64,000 bases of DNA from Promethearchaeota archaeon (lineage in GTDB: Archaea > Asgardarchaeota > Lokiarchaeia > Sigyniarchaeales > SOKP01). Of the stretch, positions 17,275 through 25,273 are shown in pieces. The stretch lies in the NCBI GenBank assembly GCA_048938895.1, contig JBHLLU010000005.1:32001-96000 (forward strand), written 5' to 3'. Below the pieces are notes generated by a model. The model was not told where the DNA came from and searched no databases. It worked only from the letters and a program-made list of their open reading frames with translations. Each line of letters begins with the position of its first letter. The first letter of the stretch is position 1. Made by a program: the position numbers and the translations under genes.

Positions 17275-19119
17275 ATGCTAAAAAAAACTAAAGCTTTCAT
17301 AGCTTTCTCAATTTGTGTAGTAATCTTTTTTAATTTCATTTTTCTTCCTAATTATTCTGATTCGAATCAAAGTATAAATGATAATTTTCAATATCCAGAA
17401 AATTCAGCAAATCTGGAAGGTATAGATAATATAATTGTAACAAATGTAGAAAGACTTGCTAATATAAGCGGATATGGAGTAGTAAGCTTTACAGATTATA
17501 TTTCCATTAAAAATCTTAATAGTAATCCAATCACTTCAATGTTTATTGCAATACCGCTAAATTACTCAGAATTATTGATATATTATGAAGCAAAGGGAAG
17601 TGATGCTAACTCTTTACTCACAGAACGTACTCATCTAATAATGAATGGATTTGAAATGATAACAGTCTATTTTGAATCACCTCTTTTACCATATCAAACG
17701 AAAAAAATACTTTTTATACAGCAATTCAAAGATCTCTTGAAATATTATACACTTAACGAGCATCAGTTCATTGATTATAATGGATATGTTTTTCCTCTTT
17801 TACCATATAGATCTGAGAGAAAAATGGATGCCCAATTTCATCTACCGCTAAGAGCACAAAATATTGAAGGAGGATGGGGTTTTGAACAACCTGATCTATA
17901 CTTCGTCAAGTATGATTTAGCCTATATTAAAGACTCTGTTGAGGGACCTTACATTGAGCCTTTCTTGGAAAATTTAGATGAATTTAAGAGAATTACAGTG
18001 TCTTTTTATCAAGATGATGTTACTTTATTAGAATTTGAAGAAATCGATAGACAGATTTTTATATCTCCTTGGGGTGTGATCAAGGTGACGGAAGAGTATA
18101 TCATTACTAACTATGGTGTAACATCGAATCAATACATTTTTTTAAACCTTCCTAAATCCGCAAGAGATGCATATGTTTCTGATGATATTGGTGAAATATT
18201 AGGGATTAGAATTCTTAAAAAAAGTAATCATAAGGAACTAAGAATTAATTTATTAGAAAATCGTGTAAGATTAATACCAAATTCATCATTTCGGTTTAAA
18301 ATAAGATATTATTTGCCTTTTGAGAAACACTATTCATTAAATTGGCTTCAAGAGTCAATTGAAATTGATCTCTATACCTCAACCTTCGAATATGCTGGGA
18401 AACAATTAACTATTAAATTAATTATTGATGGATGTTATAGTGTAGATCATATTACTTCATCTCCTGAATCAGTAAAAAAATCACATGGGAGAATGAGTTT
18501 AATTTTTACATCAGACTCTGTTGCCTCCTTAGAAGCCAAGATTATTCAGTTTACTTTTACGATCGATTTTTTTGATCTACTATTAAATCCCATCATTTAT
18601 ATTTTAATAATTGCCTCAATTGCATCTATTTATGTATTTATAATTAAAACGAGAAAGAAAGAATCTGGTACCCAAATATTAAAAAGAGAATTCATACCTG
18701 TAAACGAAATTCGGGAATTTTGCGCTTTATATGAAGAAAAAAATGCATTAATTTTAGAATTAAGGCAAGCTGAAGAGGATGCAAAAAGAAGGAAAATTGC
18801 AAAAAAGAATTATAAAAGCATTTTAAATAAAAATACAGCGAAAGTTGATGAAATCCAAAAAGAAATCGCACCTTTCAAAAAAATATTAATGGAAACAAGT
18901 GAGACTTTTGAAAATATTGTGAAAAGACTAGACGTACTTGAAGCGGAGAGAATCAGTATTAATGACAGTTTAAACCTATTAGAATCTAGATATAAAAGAG
19001 GTAGATTACCTTCTAGAGCTGCATATATGAAATTATCAGATGATTTCTTGAAAAGAAGGAAAAAAATCGACAGGACCATTGATAGATTTTTACAGCAATT
19101 AAGAAGTTACCTTCTTTGA
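17275..19119 (+). CDS. Ribophorin I (Ost1/RPN1)-like oligosaccharyltransferase subunit
   Basis: Signal peptide; two lumenal beta repeats (ERLANISGYGVV and RQIFISPWGVIKVTEEY, cf. RPN1 IEVSHWGN); YVSDDIGEI (cf. YYRDEIGNI); one TM; ~155-aa helical cytosolic tail. Confidence 0.75.
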   Translation: MLKKTKAFIAFSICVVIFFNFIFLPNYSDSNQSINDNFQYPENSANLEGIDNIIVTNVERLANISGYGVVSFTDYISIKNLNSNPITSMFIAIPLNYSELLIYYEAKGSDANSLLTERTHLIMNGFEMITVYFESPLLPYQTKKILFIQQFKDLLKYYTLNEHQFIDYNGYVFPLLPYRSERKMDAQFHLPLRAQNIEGGWGFEQPDLYFVKYDLAYIKDSVEGPYIEPFLENLDEFKRITVSFYQDDVTLLEFEEIDRQIFISPWGVIKVTEEYIITNYGVTSNQYIFLNLPKSARDAYVSDDIGEILGIRILKKSNHKELRINLLENRVRLIPNSSFRFKIRYYLPFEKHYSLNWLQESIEIDLYTSTFEYAGKQLTIKLIIDGCYSVDHITSSPESVKKSHGRMSLIFTSDSVASLEAKIIQFTFTIDFFDLLLNPIIYILIIASIASIYVFIIKTRKKESGTQILKREFIPVNEIREFCALYEEKNALILELRQAEEDAKRRKIAKKNYKSILNKNTAKVDEIQKEIAPFKKILMETSETFENIVKRLDVLEAERISINDSLNLLESRYKRGRLPSRAAYMKLSDDFLKRRKKIDRTIDRFLQQLRSYLL

Positions 19120-19138: not shown

Positions 19139-19771
19139 GTGAAATTTATGAAACCTTGGTTGTTTGACATTTTAGCATGTCCTATTGATAAACATTTTCC
19201 ATTGAAATTGTACATTTTTTCATTTGAAACCGATTCAAACGAATTCAATTCTTTTTTAGATATTTTGGAAAAGAGAGACCTTGACTTCATCAAAAAAGAG
19301 GAAATTGTAAAAATTTATCAAAAAAATGATATCTTTTTCCTTAAAGATAACATTGTAATTGAAAAAACAGAACTTAAGAAGTATGTCGATCTGATAATTT
19401 CAAGTATTAACGAGTTAGATAATATCTATAATAGAAGTTCTTCAAAGGAAAGCAAGAAATGTTTTGAAATTATTGCCGCGCAAATAAAGCCAAAGATCTC
19501 AAATTTCAGAGATTTTCTTGATCCAAATAAATTAGATAATATACTTCCTGAGTTAAATTTCTTGAATAAATTTAAATTAGATACTGAAATTGATAGGGGT
19601 CTACTCTTCTGTACAAAATGTAACCGATGGTACCCCATAATTGAAACAATTCCCCAAATGCTACCAGATGAATATAGAGATGAGACAAAGGATATCGAAT
19701 TCCTTAAAACCATTAAAAATTTAATTGATGAAGAATTTTTTAATAAAGATTTAAAACCTTTCAATCTTTAA
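19139..19771 (+). CDS. trm112: Trm112 family methyltransferase activator with long internal insertion
   Basis: MKPWLFDILACPIDKHFPL at the N-terminus and GLLFCTKCNRWYPIIETIPQML at the C-terminus; the real start is probably ATG 19148. Confidence 0.85.
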   Translation: MKFMKPWLFDILACPIDKHFPLKLYIFSFETDSNEFNSFLDILEKRDLDFIKKEEIVKIYQKNDIFFLKDNIVIEKTELKKYVDLIISSINELDNIYNRSSSKESKKCFEIIAAQIKPKISNFRDFLDPNKLDNILPELNFLNKFKLDTEIDRGLLFCTKCNRWYPIIETIPQMLPDEYRDETKDIEFLKTIKNLIDEEFFNKDLKPFNL

Positions 19772-19788
19772 AACCTTAATAAAAACAC

Positions 19789-19920
19789 AGCCCGGTAGTG
19801 TAGAATAATACATTCATAATGTATTATGCTTAATGGCCAAGCATTTAGGGCTTTGAACCCTGAGACCACGGTTCGAAAATTTACGAGATTGCTCGTCAAT
19901 AGAAACTCCGTGCCGGGCTA
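19789..19920 (+). tRNA. tRNA-Gln: tRNA-Gln(UUG) with two introns (D-loop ~19804-19833; T-loop ~19878-19906); CCA not encoded
   Basis: Acceptor AGCCCGG/CCGGGCT; D stem GTGT/GCAT; anticodon arm TAGGG-CTTTGAA-CCCTG; T stem CACGG/CCGTG. Removing two hairpin inserts (30 and 29 nt) gives a canonical 73-nt tRNA. Confidence 0.92.
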
Positions 19921-20050: not shown

Positions 20051-20380
20051 ATGGCTATCCTAACTAAGTTAAGAAATGATAAGATAAGACGTATTGTCAT
20101 TGTAGCAATTGCCATTGCAATTGTTTCAACAGTGGCGCTAGCGATAATTTTTGCAGTGTTAAACATAAAATTTGTAATTGATGAAGGTGATGATGATGAT
20201 GATTGCAAAATATGAAAACGGACGTTAAATATCAAACCATCTCTAAAAAGAAATGAATCAATAGATAATCAATTAATGAAGTTAAACGAGGAAACTTTAA
20301 TAAATAAAATTTTTACAAAACTGGATGAATCTTGTAAAAAAATGCTAGTTACAAGAGGACAACCCTGTGAAGGTATTTGA
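20051..20380 (+). CDS. Small single-TM protein; candidate selenoprotein (CxxU). 54 aa if UGA 20213-20215 is a stop, 109 aa if it is read as Sec
   Basis: MAILTKLRNDKIRRIVIVAIAIAIVSTVALAIIFAVLNIKFVIDEGDDDDDCKI-(TGA)-KRTLNIKPSLKRNESIDNQLMKLNEETLINKIFTKLDESCKKMLVTRGQPCEGI-TGA. Not in the ORF track. Confidence 0.6.
20306..20378 (+). promoter_or_regulatory. Candidate eukaryote-like SECIS element (K-turn hairpin)
   Basis: Lower helix TTTTACA(20311-17)/TGTGAAG(20366-72); core ATGA(20325-28)...GA(20358-59); perfect upper helix TCTTGTAA/TTACAAGA; apical loop starting AAAAA. Confidence 0.55.
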
Positions 20381-20450
20381 TTATAAAATTTTTCTTTTTT
20401 TACTAATCAATCAAATAGGTTTTTAGGTTTTAAATATAATCTCTAAATTC

Positions 20451-21119
20451 TCAGAAGTAAATTAAAACAATTTGATTTATGAGGAGATATATTGCTAAAA
20501 ACACCAAAATTGCTCCATTCAAAAGCCTTAGTTTAGTGCGATGCTTTATTCGAAAATCATTTATTTTTGATGATTCTAATCCTAACCGAATTAATATTAA
20601 TATTACAATAATTGGTAATAACATTCCTATAATGTATATAAAGATAAAAACATAAAGCAGTGGATTTGCATAAAGATTAGCAAGAATAGATAAGTAAATT
20701 CCCCCAAAACAAGGGATCTTAATTAGAACAAAAATAATTCCAACTAAAAAAGCATAAAATCCAGAATTTTTTTGTATAAAACTATTTAATACTGTTTTTA
20801 CCTTCTCAGGCGTTCCAAAGATTAAGCTTTGTTCTTTTTTACATTCTACTATTTGCCACAATCCCAAAAAGATTAAAATCCCTGCGAAGATAAAACTAAT
20901 AAAAATCAACTCTTCAATTAAAGGCAAAAACAGAATTGAAACTAGAATATAAGCAAGAACCATCCCAGTAATTAATCCTATTGAAATGATAAGAAATTTA
21001 TTTTTCTCTTCTATTAGAACTACAGAGGTTCCAAAAACACTAAGCATTAATAATATACAAGGTGTAATCCCTACGGCTAAACCTGACAAAAAAGTAATTA
21101 GGATATTAACTTCTTCCAT
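20451..21119 (-). CDS. ccdA: CcdA/DsbD-family transmembrane electron transporter
   Basis: Six TM helices with the two conserved Pro-Cys motifs (GITPCIL and KIPCFGG). Confidence 0.8.
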   Translation of the reverse strand: MEEVNILITFLSGLAVGITPCILLMLSVFGTSVVLIEEKNKFLIISIGLITGMVLAYILVSILFLPLIEELIFISFIFAGILIFLGLWQIVECKKEQSLIFGTPEKVKTVLNSFIQKNSGFYAFLVGIIFVLIKIPCFGGIYLSILANLYANPLLYVFIFIYIIGMLLPIIVILILIRLGLESSKINDFRIKHRTKLRLLNGAILVFLAIYLLINQIVLIYF

Positions 21120-21339: not shown

Positions 21340-22728
21340 TTGTATAAACTTATGAGACTATTATCTAAAATGAATTGGGGATTTGTAGAAATATTATTTC
21401 TAATAGTAATTTTTGTAGTGGGATTACTATCTACTTACTTTCTTCTCCCATATGTTATAAAATTAATGAAAAAGAAAAATTACATAGGATATGATATACA
21501 CAAGAATTCTCGACCTGAAGTGGCTGAATCTGGAGGACTTAGTTTTGTTTTGGGATTTATTATTACTTCCATATTCTTAATGGTATTTTTTATTAATTTT
21601 TTGAGTGAAATTTTGATCTTTGTTTTAACAGTACTATTAGCTGCAATAATTGGATTTATAGATGATCGAATAAAATTAAAATCTCGCTATAAAATAATTC
21701 TTTCTATATTTTCGGGAACAATAATATTTATTGCAAATTCTGTTGGTTTTGTTAAGATATCCTCACCTACAATTCCCATACTAGATCGAACCAGATTGAG
21801 CATTATATATCCTTTTATGATACCCTTACTTGTTGCTATTTTTGGAAATACAGTAAATATGTTAGAAGGATATAACGGAGAAGGTTCAGGAACGTGTTTA
21901 ATTGCTGTTATTTCTCTTCTCATTTGTGCAATAATATGGGATTCTGCTCAGGGAGTGCTTTTTTCAATTCCAGTCATTGCTGTTTTAATCCCTTTCTTTC
22001 TTAAAAATAAATTTCCCGCTCAAGTTTTTCCTGGAGATATAGGAACATTGAGTATGGGAGCAATGATTGCGTGTATTATGTTGTTTGGCTCACTCGAAGT
22101 TGCTGCTTTTTGTGCTCTTCTAATTCATATATTTAATAGTTTTTATGTAATTTATTCTGTAAGAGGTTTTCTTGAAAGTGATAAAATAAGGGAAGGTAAA
22201 GATGATATCATTTTACTAGAAAACGATTTAATCAAAGCATCTGATCAAAAAGATGCGGCATTAACATTGCCTAGATTGATATTAGCAAGAGGACCATTAT
22301 CTGAACCAGAGTTAGTCAATAAATTTTTTATTATATCAATAATTTGTGGTATTTTTGCCATTCTTTCAGTGCTATTTACACAACTGACAAGGGGAATTTT
22401 AAACATCGGTCTTTTTATCATAATTTTTATACTATTTCTGATACCGATTGCATTTTTTTTAATAAAATACCCCAGAATTCGAGGTACTATTGTATTAATG
22501 GTAATTCTTTTAATTGCAGCTATCATATTCTTTCTTTTAGTAGAGCTTATTATAATGCCCTTACCAATTGCAGATATTAGATTAGGTATAATTTCCATCC
22601 CAGTAAATCTAATATTTACTTTGATCATCGGTCTTATTGGGTTGATTGGATGGTATTTTATTACGATTAAGTATTTTTGGTTTCAAATAAATTCTATGAA
22701 AAAAGAAGAAATGAATAAACAAGGTTAA
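21340..22728 (+). CDS. aglH: UDP-GlcNAc:dolichyl-phosphate GlcNAc-1-phosphotransferase (AglH/ALG7/DPAGT1, MraY superfamily) with extra C-terminal TMs
   Basis: GYDIHK..RPEVAESGG, IGFIDD, NTVNMLEGYNG and FPAQVFPGDIG. The start may be ATG 21352 or 21370. Confidence 0.85.
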   Translation: MYKLMRLLSKMNWGFVEILFLIVIFVVGLLSTYFLLPYVIKLMKKKNYIGYDIHKNSRPEVAESGGLSFVLGFIITSIFLMVFFINFLSEILIFVLTVLLAAIIGFIDDRIKLKSRYKIILSIFSGTIIFIANSVGFVKISSPTIPILDRTRLSIIYPFMIPLLVAIFGNTVNMLEGYNGEGSGTCLIAVISLLICAIIWDSAQGVLFSIPVIAVLIPFFLKNKFPAQVFPGDIGTLSMGAMIACIMLFGSLEVAAFCALLIHIFNSFYVIYSVRGFLESDKIREGKDDIILLENDLIKASDQKDAALTLPRLILARGPLSEPELVNKFFIISIICGIFAILSVLFTQLTRGILNIGLFIIIFILFLIPIAFFLIKYPRIRGTIVLMVILLIAAIIFFLLVELIIMPLPIADIRLGIISIPVNLIFTLIIGLIGLIGWYFITIKYFWFQINSMKKEEMNKQG

Positions 22729-22732
22729 AAAT

Positions 22733-25273
22733 TTGAAGATAACAACAAGGTACTTACTTTTCTTTATTTACATATTCTGTGCCTTTTTTATATTTTATTC
22801 TCTTACTATTTTATTACTCGAAATCCCACTTCTCCAATTACTCACAGATTGGAGTTTTATCTTAACACTGGTACTATTTTTCTTAACTATTGAAGAATTT
22901 TATCAATGGGCTAAGAATGGAAAGAGGAGTGAAATGTCCGATATAGTAGCTATCTTGTTTTTCTTCTTTTTCATCTTCTTTTTTTCGAAAGATTTTCTAA
23001 CCTCATTAATGGGGGCTTTCTCAATATATTTATGGATTGGTATTTTTGAACTAAGAGATTATCCTGTATTAAATAAAGTATTAATTATATCTTTAGTAAC
23101 CTACAATATAATCTTCATAGCGGGTGTGCTATCTTTTTACCTCGATGATTCTTTTTTCATTGATACTAGTTTCGCCTTTTCTTTCTGGATTATTCTTATT
23201 ATGGGATTTATTCTGTTTGGTAGAAAATATTTTGTTGTGTGGCGCTTTTTAAGCCCAGAATATTTAATACTATTCATATACATTATAGCGTGGCTAGCAG
23301 TGGTATTTGTCAATAGTTATACACCTATAAATTTTATAACATCTAGCCCATTTCGTTTACCTGAGTTTAAATTAGTTGACTTCTTTTTGAACATTTACAT
23401 TATACTGATCTTAGTTAATTGGTTGGTATATTTTATTTCTGGACCTATTTTAGACAAAATGTTGGGAATTAAAACTGTCAAAAATACAAAATTATTAGGA
23501 ATAGTTCAGAATGTAAAAGAACACATTGGAATATCAGGTAAAGTCAAAGTTGGCTTTGGGAAATATCCAATATTGAATGCTATGGCATATGGATCAATTT
23601 TTGATAAAAGGATAGCTGTTATTGCTGAGGATCTAAATCAAATTCCTGAAGACGAACTAAAGGGAATAGTCGCTCACGAATTAGCTCATACAAAAGGAAA
23701 ACATACGCTGATATTGACATTAATTACCACATCTGATCTTATAATAAGAATGATTTTCGGGATTCCTGCAACTTATTACGATTATACTTTTGGTAATCCT
23801 TCAATTCCTTTATTCATTTTTATTCTATTAAATCTATTAATTTACTTTTTCCTCTTTATTTTTGTAAGAATTTTAGAAGGAAAGGCGGATTTAAGAACAA
23901 AAAAAGCAGGTTACGCTATTGAGCTAGCAAAAGCATTATACAATTTAGAAAGTTTTTATGCCTCAGGGAGAGAAATTGGATTTAATACTATGTTATTATG
24001 TGAAGAGAAAATTTCAAGGGACAATCTGTTATTAGATTATATGAACACAGCTACTTATTTATACAGTTCGATGATAAAACCTTCAAAAGCTTCTCTTTTA
24101 GGTACATTTTTAAATTCTCATCCCCCAAGTTACTTTAGAATAGCCGCAGTATTAGGAGATAAATTAAAACCGGGTAAAGAGGCTATTTTACCATTTATTT
24201 GCTTAAAAAAGGCAAAACAGAAGAAGTATGGCAGATTATTTGAGACTACTCGTCAGAGTTTTAAAATAATTGCTAACGACAAATTTAAAGAGTTTTTTAA
24301 AGTCAATCAAATTTCTTCATTACTAGATAATTTACAGAGAAAAGAAACCTATAAGTATGATCTCAAAAAAGATTACATTTTCATAAACAAAACAACAGAC
24401 GACATTTTATTGGGACATCTCGAGGATATTGCACTGCAAGATGATATTTGTGCTAGTGATCGGTTTATCATTAGAAATTTAATTACTCATGAGGAACAAA
24501 GAATAGAAGCTATTAAATATTCACTTACTCGAGTTAATTTAAATGAAATTTATTATTTCCAAAATGAGACTCCACTTATCTTAAAGCAAATTGATATTAA
24601 TGAAAATTCAAATGATTCTAATTATGTCTTTTTAGATAAGAACAATAATCAAATTCAAAAACCAATTTTAAAAACGAAAATGCCGAATTCAATGGCAATT
24701 ATAAACAACTTAAAGAACACAGAGATATTTCTAAAGAGTAAAGGTAAACTAAAAATATTAAAGTGTGTGGATGTTATTAAAGCTACTAAATTGGACGATT
24801 ATGAAATAATCCTTTCTGAATCTGGCGTAAATAATAACCAAAATCAAAAAAAATATACAATTAAAAACTTAATTATTAAACCTCAAAGGATCTATTTACC
24901 TATAAGCAAGGATCGTCGTTACAGAAAATCAGAATTGAGAATATTTAATTGGACAAAAAATAATCATATTTTACTTTATTTATATCTAAAAAAACCAGTG
25001 AATAATTTAGAAATTGGCTACGTTCAAGATTTAGATGTATTTAATGAAGAAATTCATAATAAATCTGAATATAAAGAAAGGACAAAAACCGATTTTATCC
25101 ATCTAAAAAATATTTTTGGATCCGAGATTGATATTCCTTATGATAAGATAGAATCTATTAGCTTTAAATATAAGAGCGCTATAATACAAATCAAATCTGC
25201 AACAAGTCTTTCCAGTCGGTTAGGCTACAAATTATTGAAGAAGGTTAAACCTGAAAGAATTATAATTACTTAA
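22733..25273 (+). CDS. M48 family (HtpX/Ste24-like) membrane zinc metalloprotease with N- and C-terminal extensions
   Basis: NAMAYG, ELKGIVAHELAH (HExxH), EGKAD and SHPP..RI; multi-TM N-terminus and ~330-aa soluble C-terminus. Confidence 0.88.
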   Translation: MKITTRYLLFFIYIFCAFFIFYSLTILLLEIPLLQLLTDWSFILTLVLFFLTIEEFYQWAKNGKRSEMSDIVAILFFFFFIFFFSKDFLTSLMGAFSIYLWIGIFELRDYPVLNKVLIISLVTYNIIFIAGVLSFYLDDSFFIDTSFAFSFWIILIMGFILFGRKYFVVWRFLSPEYLILFIYIIAWLAVVFVNSYTPINFITSSPFRLPEFKLVDFFLNIYIILILVNWLVYFISGPILDKMLGIKTVKNTKLLGIVQNVKEHIGISGKVKVGFGKYPILNAMAYGSIFDKRIAVIAEDLNQIPEDELKGIVAHELAHTKGKHTLILTLITTSDLIIRMIFGIPATYYDYTFGNPSIPLFIFILLNLLIYFFLFIFVRILEGKADLRTKKAGYAIELAKALYNLESFYASGREIGFNTMLLCEEKISRDNLLLDYMNTATYLYSSMIKPSKASLLGTFLNSHPPSYFRIAAVLGDKLKPGKEAILPFICLKKAKQKKYGRLFETTRQSFKIIANDKFKEFFKVNQISSLLDNLQRKETYKYDLKKDYIFINKTTDDILLGHLEDIALQDDICASDRFIIRNLITHEEQRIEAIKYSLTRVNLNEIYYFQNETPLILKQIDINENSNDSNYVFLDKNNNQIQKPILKTKMPNSMAIINNLKNTEIFLKSKGKLKILKCVDVIKATKLDDYEIILSESGVNNNQNQKKYTIKNLIIKPQRIYLPISKDRRYRKSELRIFNWTKNNHILLYLYLKKPVNNLEIGYVQDLDVFNEEIHNKSEYKERTKTDFIHLKNIFGSEIDIPYDKIESISFKYKSAIIQIKSATSLSSRLGYKLLKKVKPERIIIT

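Follow-up and report, generated by a model that had tools for sequence, protein, structure and literature searches.

A probable membrane-anchored selenoprotein gene of Lokiarchaeia whose eukaryote-like SECIS element overlaps the coding sequence

The 64,000-nt stretch of DNA analyzed here (the window; G000:C51:32001-96000, with positions counted from its first base unless a contig is named) belongs to a Lokiarchaeial genome with an assembly of 4.65 Mb and a G+C content of 31%. At 20051..20380 on the + strand it carries a small open reading frame (ORF) with an internal TGA codon and a hairpin near its 3' end, and this is probably a new gene of Lokiarchaeia for a membrane-anchored selenoprotein that works by the mechanism proposed below. 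The parts of this statement differ in weight. Judged from sequence comparisons, it is highly probable that the ORF is a genuine selenoprotein gene with a functional selenocysteine insertion sequence (SECIS), while the case for an outward-facing selenenylsulfide as its mode of action is about evenly balanced. The apparatus for recoding UGA would be the one already known in Lokiarchaeota, and the protein family appears to be new. In what follows, G000 is the genome that contains the window and other G-numbers denote the compared genomes, of which there were 54 in the genus (53 in the tally made with profile A6, see later) and 161 in the class.

From the ATG at 20051 the ORF encodes MAILTKLRNDKIRR, then 23 hydrophobic residues and NIKFVIDEGDDDDD-C-K-I, and reaches a TGA at 20213-20215, beyond which 54 further codons remain open in the same frame (20216..20377), until the TGA at 20378-20380. 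Read through, the product has 109 residues, with a transmembrane (TM) helix at residues 15-37 (20093..20161; flanking net charge of +4 on the N-terminal and -6 on the C-terminal side) and a C-K-I-U motif at 20204..20215, in which Cys52 is encoded by 20204-06 and selenocysteine (Sec) 55 by the UGA at 20213-15. An earlier annotation made from the letters alone (the sequence-only reading) had described this arrangement of basic N-terminus, TM segment, acidic linker and C-K-I-TGA, and it was right to the base; the 54 open codons ending at TGA 20378 were also found as stated. The internal TGA is unaltered in contigs from three other sequencing runs belonging to two studies. The product has no family match in Pfam or NCBIfam, which agrees with the earlier annotation, where it was not recognized as any known archaeal selenoprotein family.

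When the read-through product was used as a query for homologous proteins, just two entries, both from ENA (P0103 and P0104), were recovered, and no full-length protein called under genetic code 11. Both ENA entries have W at both TGA positions and are metagenome calls on short contigs, evidently translated with a code in which TGA specifies Trp (code 4), so they were rejected as Cys homologues. Gene callers end the ORF at the first TGA, and this, together with the missing full-length code-11 protein, is what would be seen if the TGA were an ordinary stop. The gene would then specify a 54-residue membrane peptide ending in C-K-I, and the hairpin would be a kink-turn RNA element with a different function, such as a terminator or processing signal. 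The location is compatible with such a role, as the ORF lies between a gene for a Trm112-like protein (19139-19771) and a convergent gene on the minus strand (20451-21119), and terminators are expected between convergent genes. The structure of the hairpin and the conservation of the frame, described next, bear directly on this alternative.

The 5' part of the hairpin consists of AUGA (20325-20328), a 5' arm AUCUUGUAA (20329-20337) and an 11-nt loop AAAAAUGCUAG (20338-20348), and the 3' part consists of the 3' arm UUACAAGAG (20349-20357) followed by GA (20358-20359). The stem contains eight Watson-Crick pairs and one A.G, and the loop is of the AAAAA..AG type, as in the lokiSECIS. In the description given by Mariotti et al. 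2016 (PMC4989117), the lokiSECIS has AUGA, a 9-bp stem, an 11-nt apical loop and then GA (AA in VhuU); the first five loop bases prefer A, the last is an ultraconserved G that mostly follows A, and the element lies near the end of the coding sequence. The hairpin of the window agrees with each point of that published description, with only its position slightly off, in that the ORF overlaps the element. The AUGA at 20325 starts 112 nt from the first base of the UGA at 20213. Downstream of the GA are CAACC and then a small ACC/GGU hairpin (20362-74), both common to the known elements of this genome, and the 3' flank as a whole is nearly identical to that of the genome's own Prx-like gene.

A pattern scan of the whole genome detected 17 sites with the loose architecture and eight with the strict form (9-bp stem and 11-nt loop), and the strict pattern was found zero times in each of eight genome-sized simulated genomes (second-order Markov). 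ORFs with an in-frame TGA immediately precede four of the eight strict sites and one additional site, the loop of which has 10 nt. Pfam assigns three of these five ORFs to FlpD/MvhD, one to an HdrA-like flavo-FeS protein and the fifth to a peroxiredoxin-like protein (AhpC-TSA); FlpD, HdrA and Prx-like proteins are among the selenoprotein families described for Lokiarchaeota (PMC4989117). A covariance model, R1, was trained on just those five elements (three FlpD/VhuD, HdrA and Prx-like). With this model the hairpin at 20311-20378 reaches 58.5 bits (E about 1e-9), compared to 16.4 bits for the runner-up within the window, and in the genome as a whole the hairpin was the top match outside the training set (150 of 3961 first-look candidates scored). 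A model that learned from known selenoprotein genes alone thus scores the hairpin as a SECIS, and elements of the same shape otherwise stand 3' of known selenoprotein genes; both observations speak against an ordinary stop. The eukaryote-like SECIS that the sequence-only reading had placed about 110 nt past the UGA is borne out by distance, published form and score.

The stem also shows covariation, with six of its nine pairs changed on both sides across 23 family members. Stem cells are paired in 92% of cases compared to 36–62% in slid controls, and none of 500 shuffles matched the observed covariation, although the underlying alignment was fitted to the R1 model, which somewhat favours structure. 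Based on this evidence, the UGA at 20213-15 would be decoded as Sec by way of the lokiSECIS at 20311..20378, and the ribosome would use the element for decoding and later melt and translate it, within the last ~18 codons of the gene.

Other observations were made on SECIS-like and other RNA elements. In sediment metagenome runs X2, X3 and X5, many unrelated contigs align just to 20325-20374 and then diverge; they are read as SECIS elements of other genes or organisms, the element being multi-copy in these communities. At G000:C99:40428-40940 (locus L039 1029-1541), a strict-pattern, lokiSECIS-like hairpin (R1, 32.5 bits) follows an ORF of 160–170 codons with two adjacent in-frame TGAs (..VVHAD-U-U-ADV..) and no Pfam family, which lies downstream of a transporter-like C-terminus and is possibly another new selenoprotein. 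Another strict-pattern, SECIS-like hairpin (R1, 33.2 bits) is present at G000:C144:55493 on the minus strand (locus L040 640-708); the ORF ahead of it is hydrophobic and contains a single in-frame TGA (..WGISS-U-SIPP..). No Rfam family was found at its gathering score in the window. Around the ORF there were weak, chance-level Rfam matches to a hammerhead-like element (18.7 bits) and to two C/D-box small nucleolar RNAs (~17 bits), and a C/D-box small RNA was dismissed as the CUGA D box is missing.

A six-frame search with the read-through product, followed by a profile (A3), recovered the gene in 14 of the 54 genomes of the genus; outside the genus, A3 gave just weaker matches, and these were to a sister family (see later). 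Ten homologues were analyzed in detail, and the loci of G061, G064, G069 and G068 were looked at additionally. The first stop is TGA in all ten detailed homologues and also in G061, G064 and G069, that is, in 13 of the 14 carriers. TAA and TAG, which the sequence-only reading had named as the outcome that would count against it, were not seen at this position in any of the 13 TGA-bearing orthologues. Such uniformity is difficult to reconcile with an ordinary stop, since TGA closes just 12% of the long frames of this genome (TAA, 72%). In the ten homologues, the frame past the TGA is open for 26–93 codons, and their tails contain no in-frame stop in 476 codons, compared to 127 stops in the other two frames. 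The second stop never precedes the SECIS (it lies at +1 to +167 nt, counted from the start of the element), so that the frame does not close ahead of the hairpin, again contrary to what an ordinary stop would predict. The distance from UGA to AUGA ranges from 80 to 121 nt across the homologues, and R1 matches all 14 carriers (34–66 bits). Conservation past the UGA, one of the points on which the earlier annotation had asked to be judged, is evident in both the open tails and the retained SECIS. In the C-terminal block ..DESCKKMLVTRGQPCEG it is the nucleotides that are conserved, in a frame that differs between species, indicating that what is conserved there is the SECIS, of which the final residues of the protein are a by-product. 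The frame of the tail is under selection, and its amino acid sequence is weakly so.

Only five residues are invariant in the protein alignment, M1, R8, D49, Cys52 and Sec55, and the spacing of the last two varies. The motif is C-x-U in G005, G030, G026, G061 and G064, C-x-x-U in G000, G025 and G018, C-x-x-x-U in G004 and G069, and C-x-x-x-x-U in G009 and G006. In G034 it is inverted to U-P-C, Sec occupying the Cys column and Cys the Sec column. The remaining carrier, G068, has C-N-C with no TGA, an open frame of 124 residues and an intact SECIS (45 bits); its locus contains a 30-nt duplication. It is the sole pure Cys form and looks like a recent replacement of Sec by Cys. This is a Cys homologue of the kind that the sequence-only reading had suggested looking for, and it is also evidence against an ordinary stop, as the gene carries Cys and simply reads on. 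Exchange between Sec and Cys, as in G068 and G034, is a classical signature of selenoprotein families and argues for a joint function of the two residues.

Several observations weigh against a membrane-anchored selenoprotein gene of the kind proposed. The homologues are closely related and fall into roughly five sub-lineages, so the counts given above overstate their independence. The part of the tail ahead of the SECIS has a ratio of nonsynonymous to synonymous polymorphism (pN/pS) of 0.65–0.82, based on very few sites (the pair G005/G026, misaligned in its N-terminal part, was left out), and the tail sequence is weakly constrained. The G018 locus looks worn: its SECIS stem has lost one nucleotide (34 bits), and the neighboring ccdA gene contains a TAG. 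The fold energy of the hairpin is ordinary (z = -1.32), as might also be said in favor of a plain stop codon with an unremarkable hairpin behind it. In addition, the SECIS lies within the coding sequence, while the published Lokiarchaeota description has it 3' of the stop, and the spacing of one to four residues between Cys and Sec is unlike that of classical catalytic CxxU motifs. Taken together with the conserved TGA, the open frames and the SECIS model scores, an ordinary stop codon is nonetheless considered very improbable, and translation of the UGA as Sec is preferred.

The genome encodes the means for such decoding. A tRNA-Sec gene (61 bits, above the Rfam cut-off, and also called by ARAGORN; G000:C51:105615-105703), SepSecS (500 bits; G000:C51:105886-107184) and EFSec (243 bits; G000:C51:99651-100760) are all on the same contig as the candidate, 47–55 kb past it and beyond the end of the window. 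Contig C140 carries selD twice in tandem, each copy with an in-frame TGA, and a PSTK-like gene was matched weakly by a eukaryotic model (39.9 bits, less than its cut-off). The presence of tRNA-Sec, SepSecS, EFSec and selD, with a weak PSTK, indicates that the organism can read UGA as Sec. These are the components that the earlier annotation had listed as needed, with PSTK the one that is represented by a weak match.

An AlphaFold2 model of the product, built from an alignment of ten sequences, has a confident TM helix at residues 3-40 (predicted local distance difference test (pLDDT) up to 90), a disordered stretch at residues 40-70 (pLDDT <50) that contains the Cys/Sec pair, and a low-confidence helix at 68-102; the mean pLDDT is 58.5. 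There is no thioredoxin fold around the Cys/Sec pair in this model, and Pfam gave no match to one. The net charge ahead of the TM helix is +1 to +7, and that of the 15 residues after it is -1 to -8, in all ten homologues. By the positive-inside rule, this bias would place the N-terminus in the cytoplasm and the arm with the Cys/Sec pair outside the cell, as the sequence-only reading had predicted from a single sequence. The product would accordingly be a type-II membrane protein of 109 residues (N-in/C-out), with an acidic, disordered Cys/Sec arm outside the cell and, beyond it, a weakly conserved, probably helical tail. The same reading had also pointed to CxxU as a standard selenoprotein redox motif, but the motif of this family is not a CxxU of the thioredoxin type. 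The pair occurs as C-x(1-4)-U or U-x-C, with a spacer that is not fixed and an order that can be inverted, and with no thioredoxin fold, which sets the protein apart from the thioredoxin-fold CxxC/CxxU oxidoreductases.

The proposed mechanism is that Cys52 and Sec55 form a reversible selenenylsulfide, and that the flexible, acidic arm on which they sit is a small, mobile redox center tethered to the outer side of the membrane. It might work in the manner of the Cys-Sec tail of thioredoxin reductase, or in that of anchored CcdA clients, although no thioredoxin fold would be involved; a CcdA-like protein would be an optional reductant. A second possibility, considered unlikely, is that at the cell surface the pair serves to bind or handle soft metals or chalcogens (Hg, Cu, As, Se or polysulfide), instead of cycling as a thiol/selenol oxidoreductase. 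The variable Cys-Sec spacing and a disordered arm, acidic or Gly-rich, with no surrounding fold would suit such a role, and the table of a 2026 review (PMC13188914) includes membrane selenoproteins of such a kind, among them a putative mercuric transport protein with a C/SxxU motif. The protein matches no metal-binding family, however, and its neighbors are genes for a Trm112-like protein, a tRNA, a CcdA-like protein and a GT4 glycosyltransferase, with no metal-resistance genes beside it. A redox center thus seems the better supported of the two functions, and the question of its reductant turns on the convergent gene.

That gene (20451..21119 on the minus strand) encodes a membrane protein of 222 aa. 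The match to Pfam DsbD_TM (14.3 bits, E 0.025) is below the cut-off of 27.1, but its relatives, which are labeled as Promethearchaeota/Lokiarchaeota MAG proteins, are named CcdA by NCBI and JGI, and PF02683 is assigned to two cluster representatives among 101 relatives. In 33 sequences, C21, C140 and P139 are invariant and P20 nearly so, giving two Pro-Cys motifs, each in a different TM helix, and conserved cysteines as in CcdA/DsbD. In an hhalign comparison with a DsbD_2 protein that Pfam does recognize, both cysteines fall opposite the cysteines of that protein (E 0.003, probability 11%). The AlphaFold2 model (pLDDT 71) has the nuclear magnetic resonance structure of CcdA (5VKV) as its top Foldseek match (E 0.17, TM-score 0.47), and a search of the profile of this protein against solved structures gave no match at E up to 1. 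On these features it is a divergent CcdA-like protein. The sequence-only reading was correct in seeing a convergent gene of this type, and its identification as CcdA/DsbD needs to be softened to CcdA-like.

For each of the 14 carriers, gene order at the locus was determined by tblastn. The arrangement Trm112-like, (tRNA), selenoprotein, convergent intact ccdA and GT4 is kept in eight (G000, G004, G068, G025, G018, G009, G069 and G006). In G061 the ccdA gene is a pseudogene at the usual place, in G005, G030, G026 and G064 the selenoprotein gene directly adjoins GT4, and G034 shows no match to any of the three neighbors and has a different context. The conserved synteny expected by the earlier annotation is thus observed in eight carriers, and breaks down in the other six. 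Of the 54 genomes of the genus, 12 contain ccdA, in two cases as a pseudogene, and the selenoprotein gene adjoins it in eight of the ten genomes with an intact copy.

Such adjacency could mean that the CcdA-like transporter is a dedicated and obligatory partner, passing electrons from thioredoxin by way of CcdA to the extracellular Cys-Sec arm, as the sequence-only reading had suggested. The conservation of both Pro-Cys motifs and the best fold match, to CcdA, are in keeping with this, and a further parallel is provided by G076:C102 (locus L084 41-2530). There, the ccdA orthologue is part of a four-gene cluster on one strand that also encodes a thioredoxin-like protein of the AhpC-TSA/Redoxin family, anchored at its N-terminus and bearing a CPGC motif, together with a 4Fe-4S ferredoxin and a canonical DsbD_2 protein. 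The CPGC protein has the same layout of anchor plus redox motif as the candidate, and by analogy the operon shows the type of client that the ccdA-like transporter may serve. However, the ccdA and selenoprotein genes are convergent, and so not co-transcribed, and each survives without the other, which makes the link doubtful. A whole-genome search with this query found no ccdA in G005, G030, G026 and G064 (95–100% complete), G061 has the pseudogene, and G075, a closely related genome, presents the opposite case, retaining Trm112-like, tRNA, ccdA and GT4 but with neither the selenoprotein ORF nor the SECIS. The parent U-x-C family (see later) is widespread without ccdA, being found in 43 of 53 genomes of the genus compared to 12 of 54 for ccdA, and inheritance of one locus from a common ancestor can account for the co-occurrence within a single genus. 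A complex prediction for the Cys homologue of G068 with its own CcdA scored 0.00, and as controls were lacking it was counted neither way. An obligatory relay is therefore rather unlikely, and much the same holds for the more general proposal that the transporter is coupled to the selenoprotein and may re-reduce its arm; for part of the lineage, a functional link to ccdA is plausible.

The second-best new SECIS of the genome (50.6 bits; G000:C102:8661-8728) belongs to a sister gene at G000:C102:8489-8728 (locus L038 1287-1529), a 55-codon ORF with a basic N-terminus, a TM helix and the sequence GDGGGT-U-G-C-LTNLF, in which the SECIS is only ~47 nt past the UGA. A profile of nine sister-type genes (A6) matched 94 of the 161 genomes of the class. 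Within the family it matched 91 of 134 genomes; the genus accounts for matches in 43 of its 53 genomes, and the sister genus g28 for matches in 37 of 42. An in-frame TGA is present at 94 of 110 A6 places among the matches listed. The family motif is a Gly-rich stretch followed by U-x-C, where x is G, P, Q, L, A or V. R1 detected a SECIS at all of the first nine sister loci, and at 20 further sampled loci it gave 15 strong matches, one weak match and four without a match (two in genus g18 and two in family f6, within 600–700 bases each), the SECIS of which may be divergent or farther off. With its U-P-C motif and candidate-type tail, G034 bridges the two groups and identifies the candidate as a genus-restricted derivative of widespread mini-selenoproteins. 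The gene is thus very probably a genus-restricted offshoot of a wider Lokiarchaeial family defined by a TM helix, a Gly-rich linker and U-x-C.

Upstream of the candidate, the window carries a homologue of Ribophorin I, a eukaryote-type oligosaccharyltransferase subunit (17275-19119), and the Trm112-like gene; on the far side of ccdA are the GT4 glycosyltransferase (21340-22728) and an M48 peptidase (22733-25273). The Ribophorin I homologue and GT4 near the candidate suggest an N-glycosylation context. Between the Trm112-like gene and the candidate is a gene for tRNA-Gln(UUG) at 19789-19920 (+), conserved in G075, which has two non-canonical introns, one in the D-loop (about 19804-19833) and the other in the T-loop (about 19878-19906). 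In the unedited window ARAGORN detects no tRNA; after in silico excision of both inserts it calls tRNA-Gln. The same program finds 17 tRNAs in the whole genome, and so low a number indicates that many tRNA genes here are probably intron-bearing.

The surveys of Asgard selenoproteins considered here found their families mainly by homology to known families or to Cys homologues. Huang et al. 2024 (PMC11227280) searched more than 400 Asgard genomes with known families alone, and none of the seven families that they give is a membrane mini-protein. Likewise, Mariotti et al. 2016 (PMC4989117), in the passages considered, name no additional candidate from the Loki assembly they studied, and those of a 2026 review (PMC13188914) and of Sun et al. 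2021 (PMC9723677) mention no such family. No mini-selenoprotein family of this kind was thus found in the literature searched, a search that covered article text. The gene would add a selenoprotein family that matches no known protein family, is membrane-anchored and is probably extracytoplasmic. Together with the U-x-C sister family, it would be among the most widely distributed selenoprotein genes of this Lokiarchaeial family, and would show that a eukaryote-like SECIS can occur naturally within coding sequence. Annotation pipelines cut such genes at the UGA or translate it as Trp. As the product is a small peptide that can be synthesized, the chemistry of a free Cys/Sec pair at the cell surface would be open to experiment, and the family should be of interest to both the selenium-biology and Asgard fields.

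Compared with the known lokiSECIS genes (VhuD/FlpD, HdrA, VhuU and Prx-like), as described in PMC4989117, the candidate shares the recoding signal, including the C(U)AACC behind it and the location where the coding sequence ends, but its ORF runs through the SECIS rather than stopping before it. The protein itself is unrelated to the seven Asgard selenoprotein families as they appear in the published surveys, being a small membrane protein and not a soluble redox enzyme.

The resemblance to the eukaryotic SELENOK and SELENOS that the sequence-only reading had noted is partly upheld. In architecture the candidate is similar, being small, with a single TM helix toward the N-terminus, Sec in a disordered segment and no thioredoxin fold. 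SELENOK and SELENOS end in GG-U-G, and the Gly-Gly-Gly-U-G of the sister family may recall these ends. They expose their Sec to the cytosol, whereas the candidate is predicted to be N-in/C-out with Sec outside, the opposite topology, and has a partner Cys one to four residues away; the likeness is confined to architecture, and Pfam SelK/SelS gave no match at E up to 10 for the candidate and nine sister-family members. A far-reaching interpretation, which we regard as very unlikely, is that Lokiarchaeia have an overlooked family of membrane mini-selenoproteins, in at least 94 of 161 genomes, that are archaeal counterparts, and possibly forerunners, of the SELENOK/SELENOS type, with which they would have a Gly-Gly-Sec-Gly-like motif in common. 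It would entail that there are usually one or two such genes per genome, each encoding a TM helix and a flexible arm, Gly-rich or acidic, with the Sec/Cys pair, with a SECIS that overlaps or abuts the stop codon, and that the candidate is a derivative recruited beside a CcdA-like transporter.

Two other systems invite comparison. Like the CcdA clients of the ResA/TlpA/CcmG type, the candidate is anchored by its N-terminus, has a predicted extracytoplasmic redox pair and is encoded beside a ccdA-type gene; unlike them, it has no thioredoxin fold, its spacing is not that of a fixed CxxC, one of the partners is Sec, and ccdA is dispensable in several carriers. Animal thioredoxin reductase has a flexible C-terminal redox arm ending in Gly-Cys-Sec-Gly, in which, as proposed here, a Cys/Sec pair on an unstructured arm serves as a mobile selenenylsulfide shuttle. 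The arm of the candidate would differ in being a free-standing peptide tethered to the membrane rather than the tail of a flavoenzyme, and in having a Cys and a Sec that are not adjacent.

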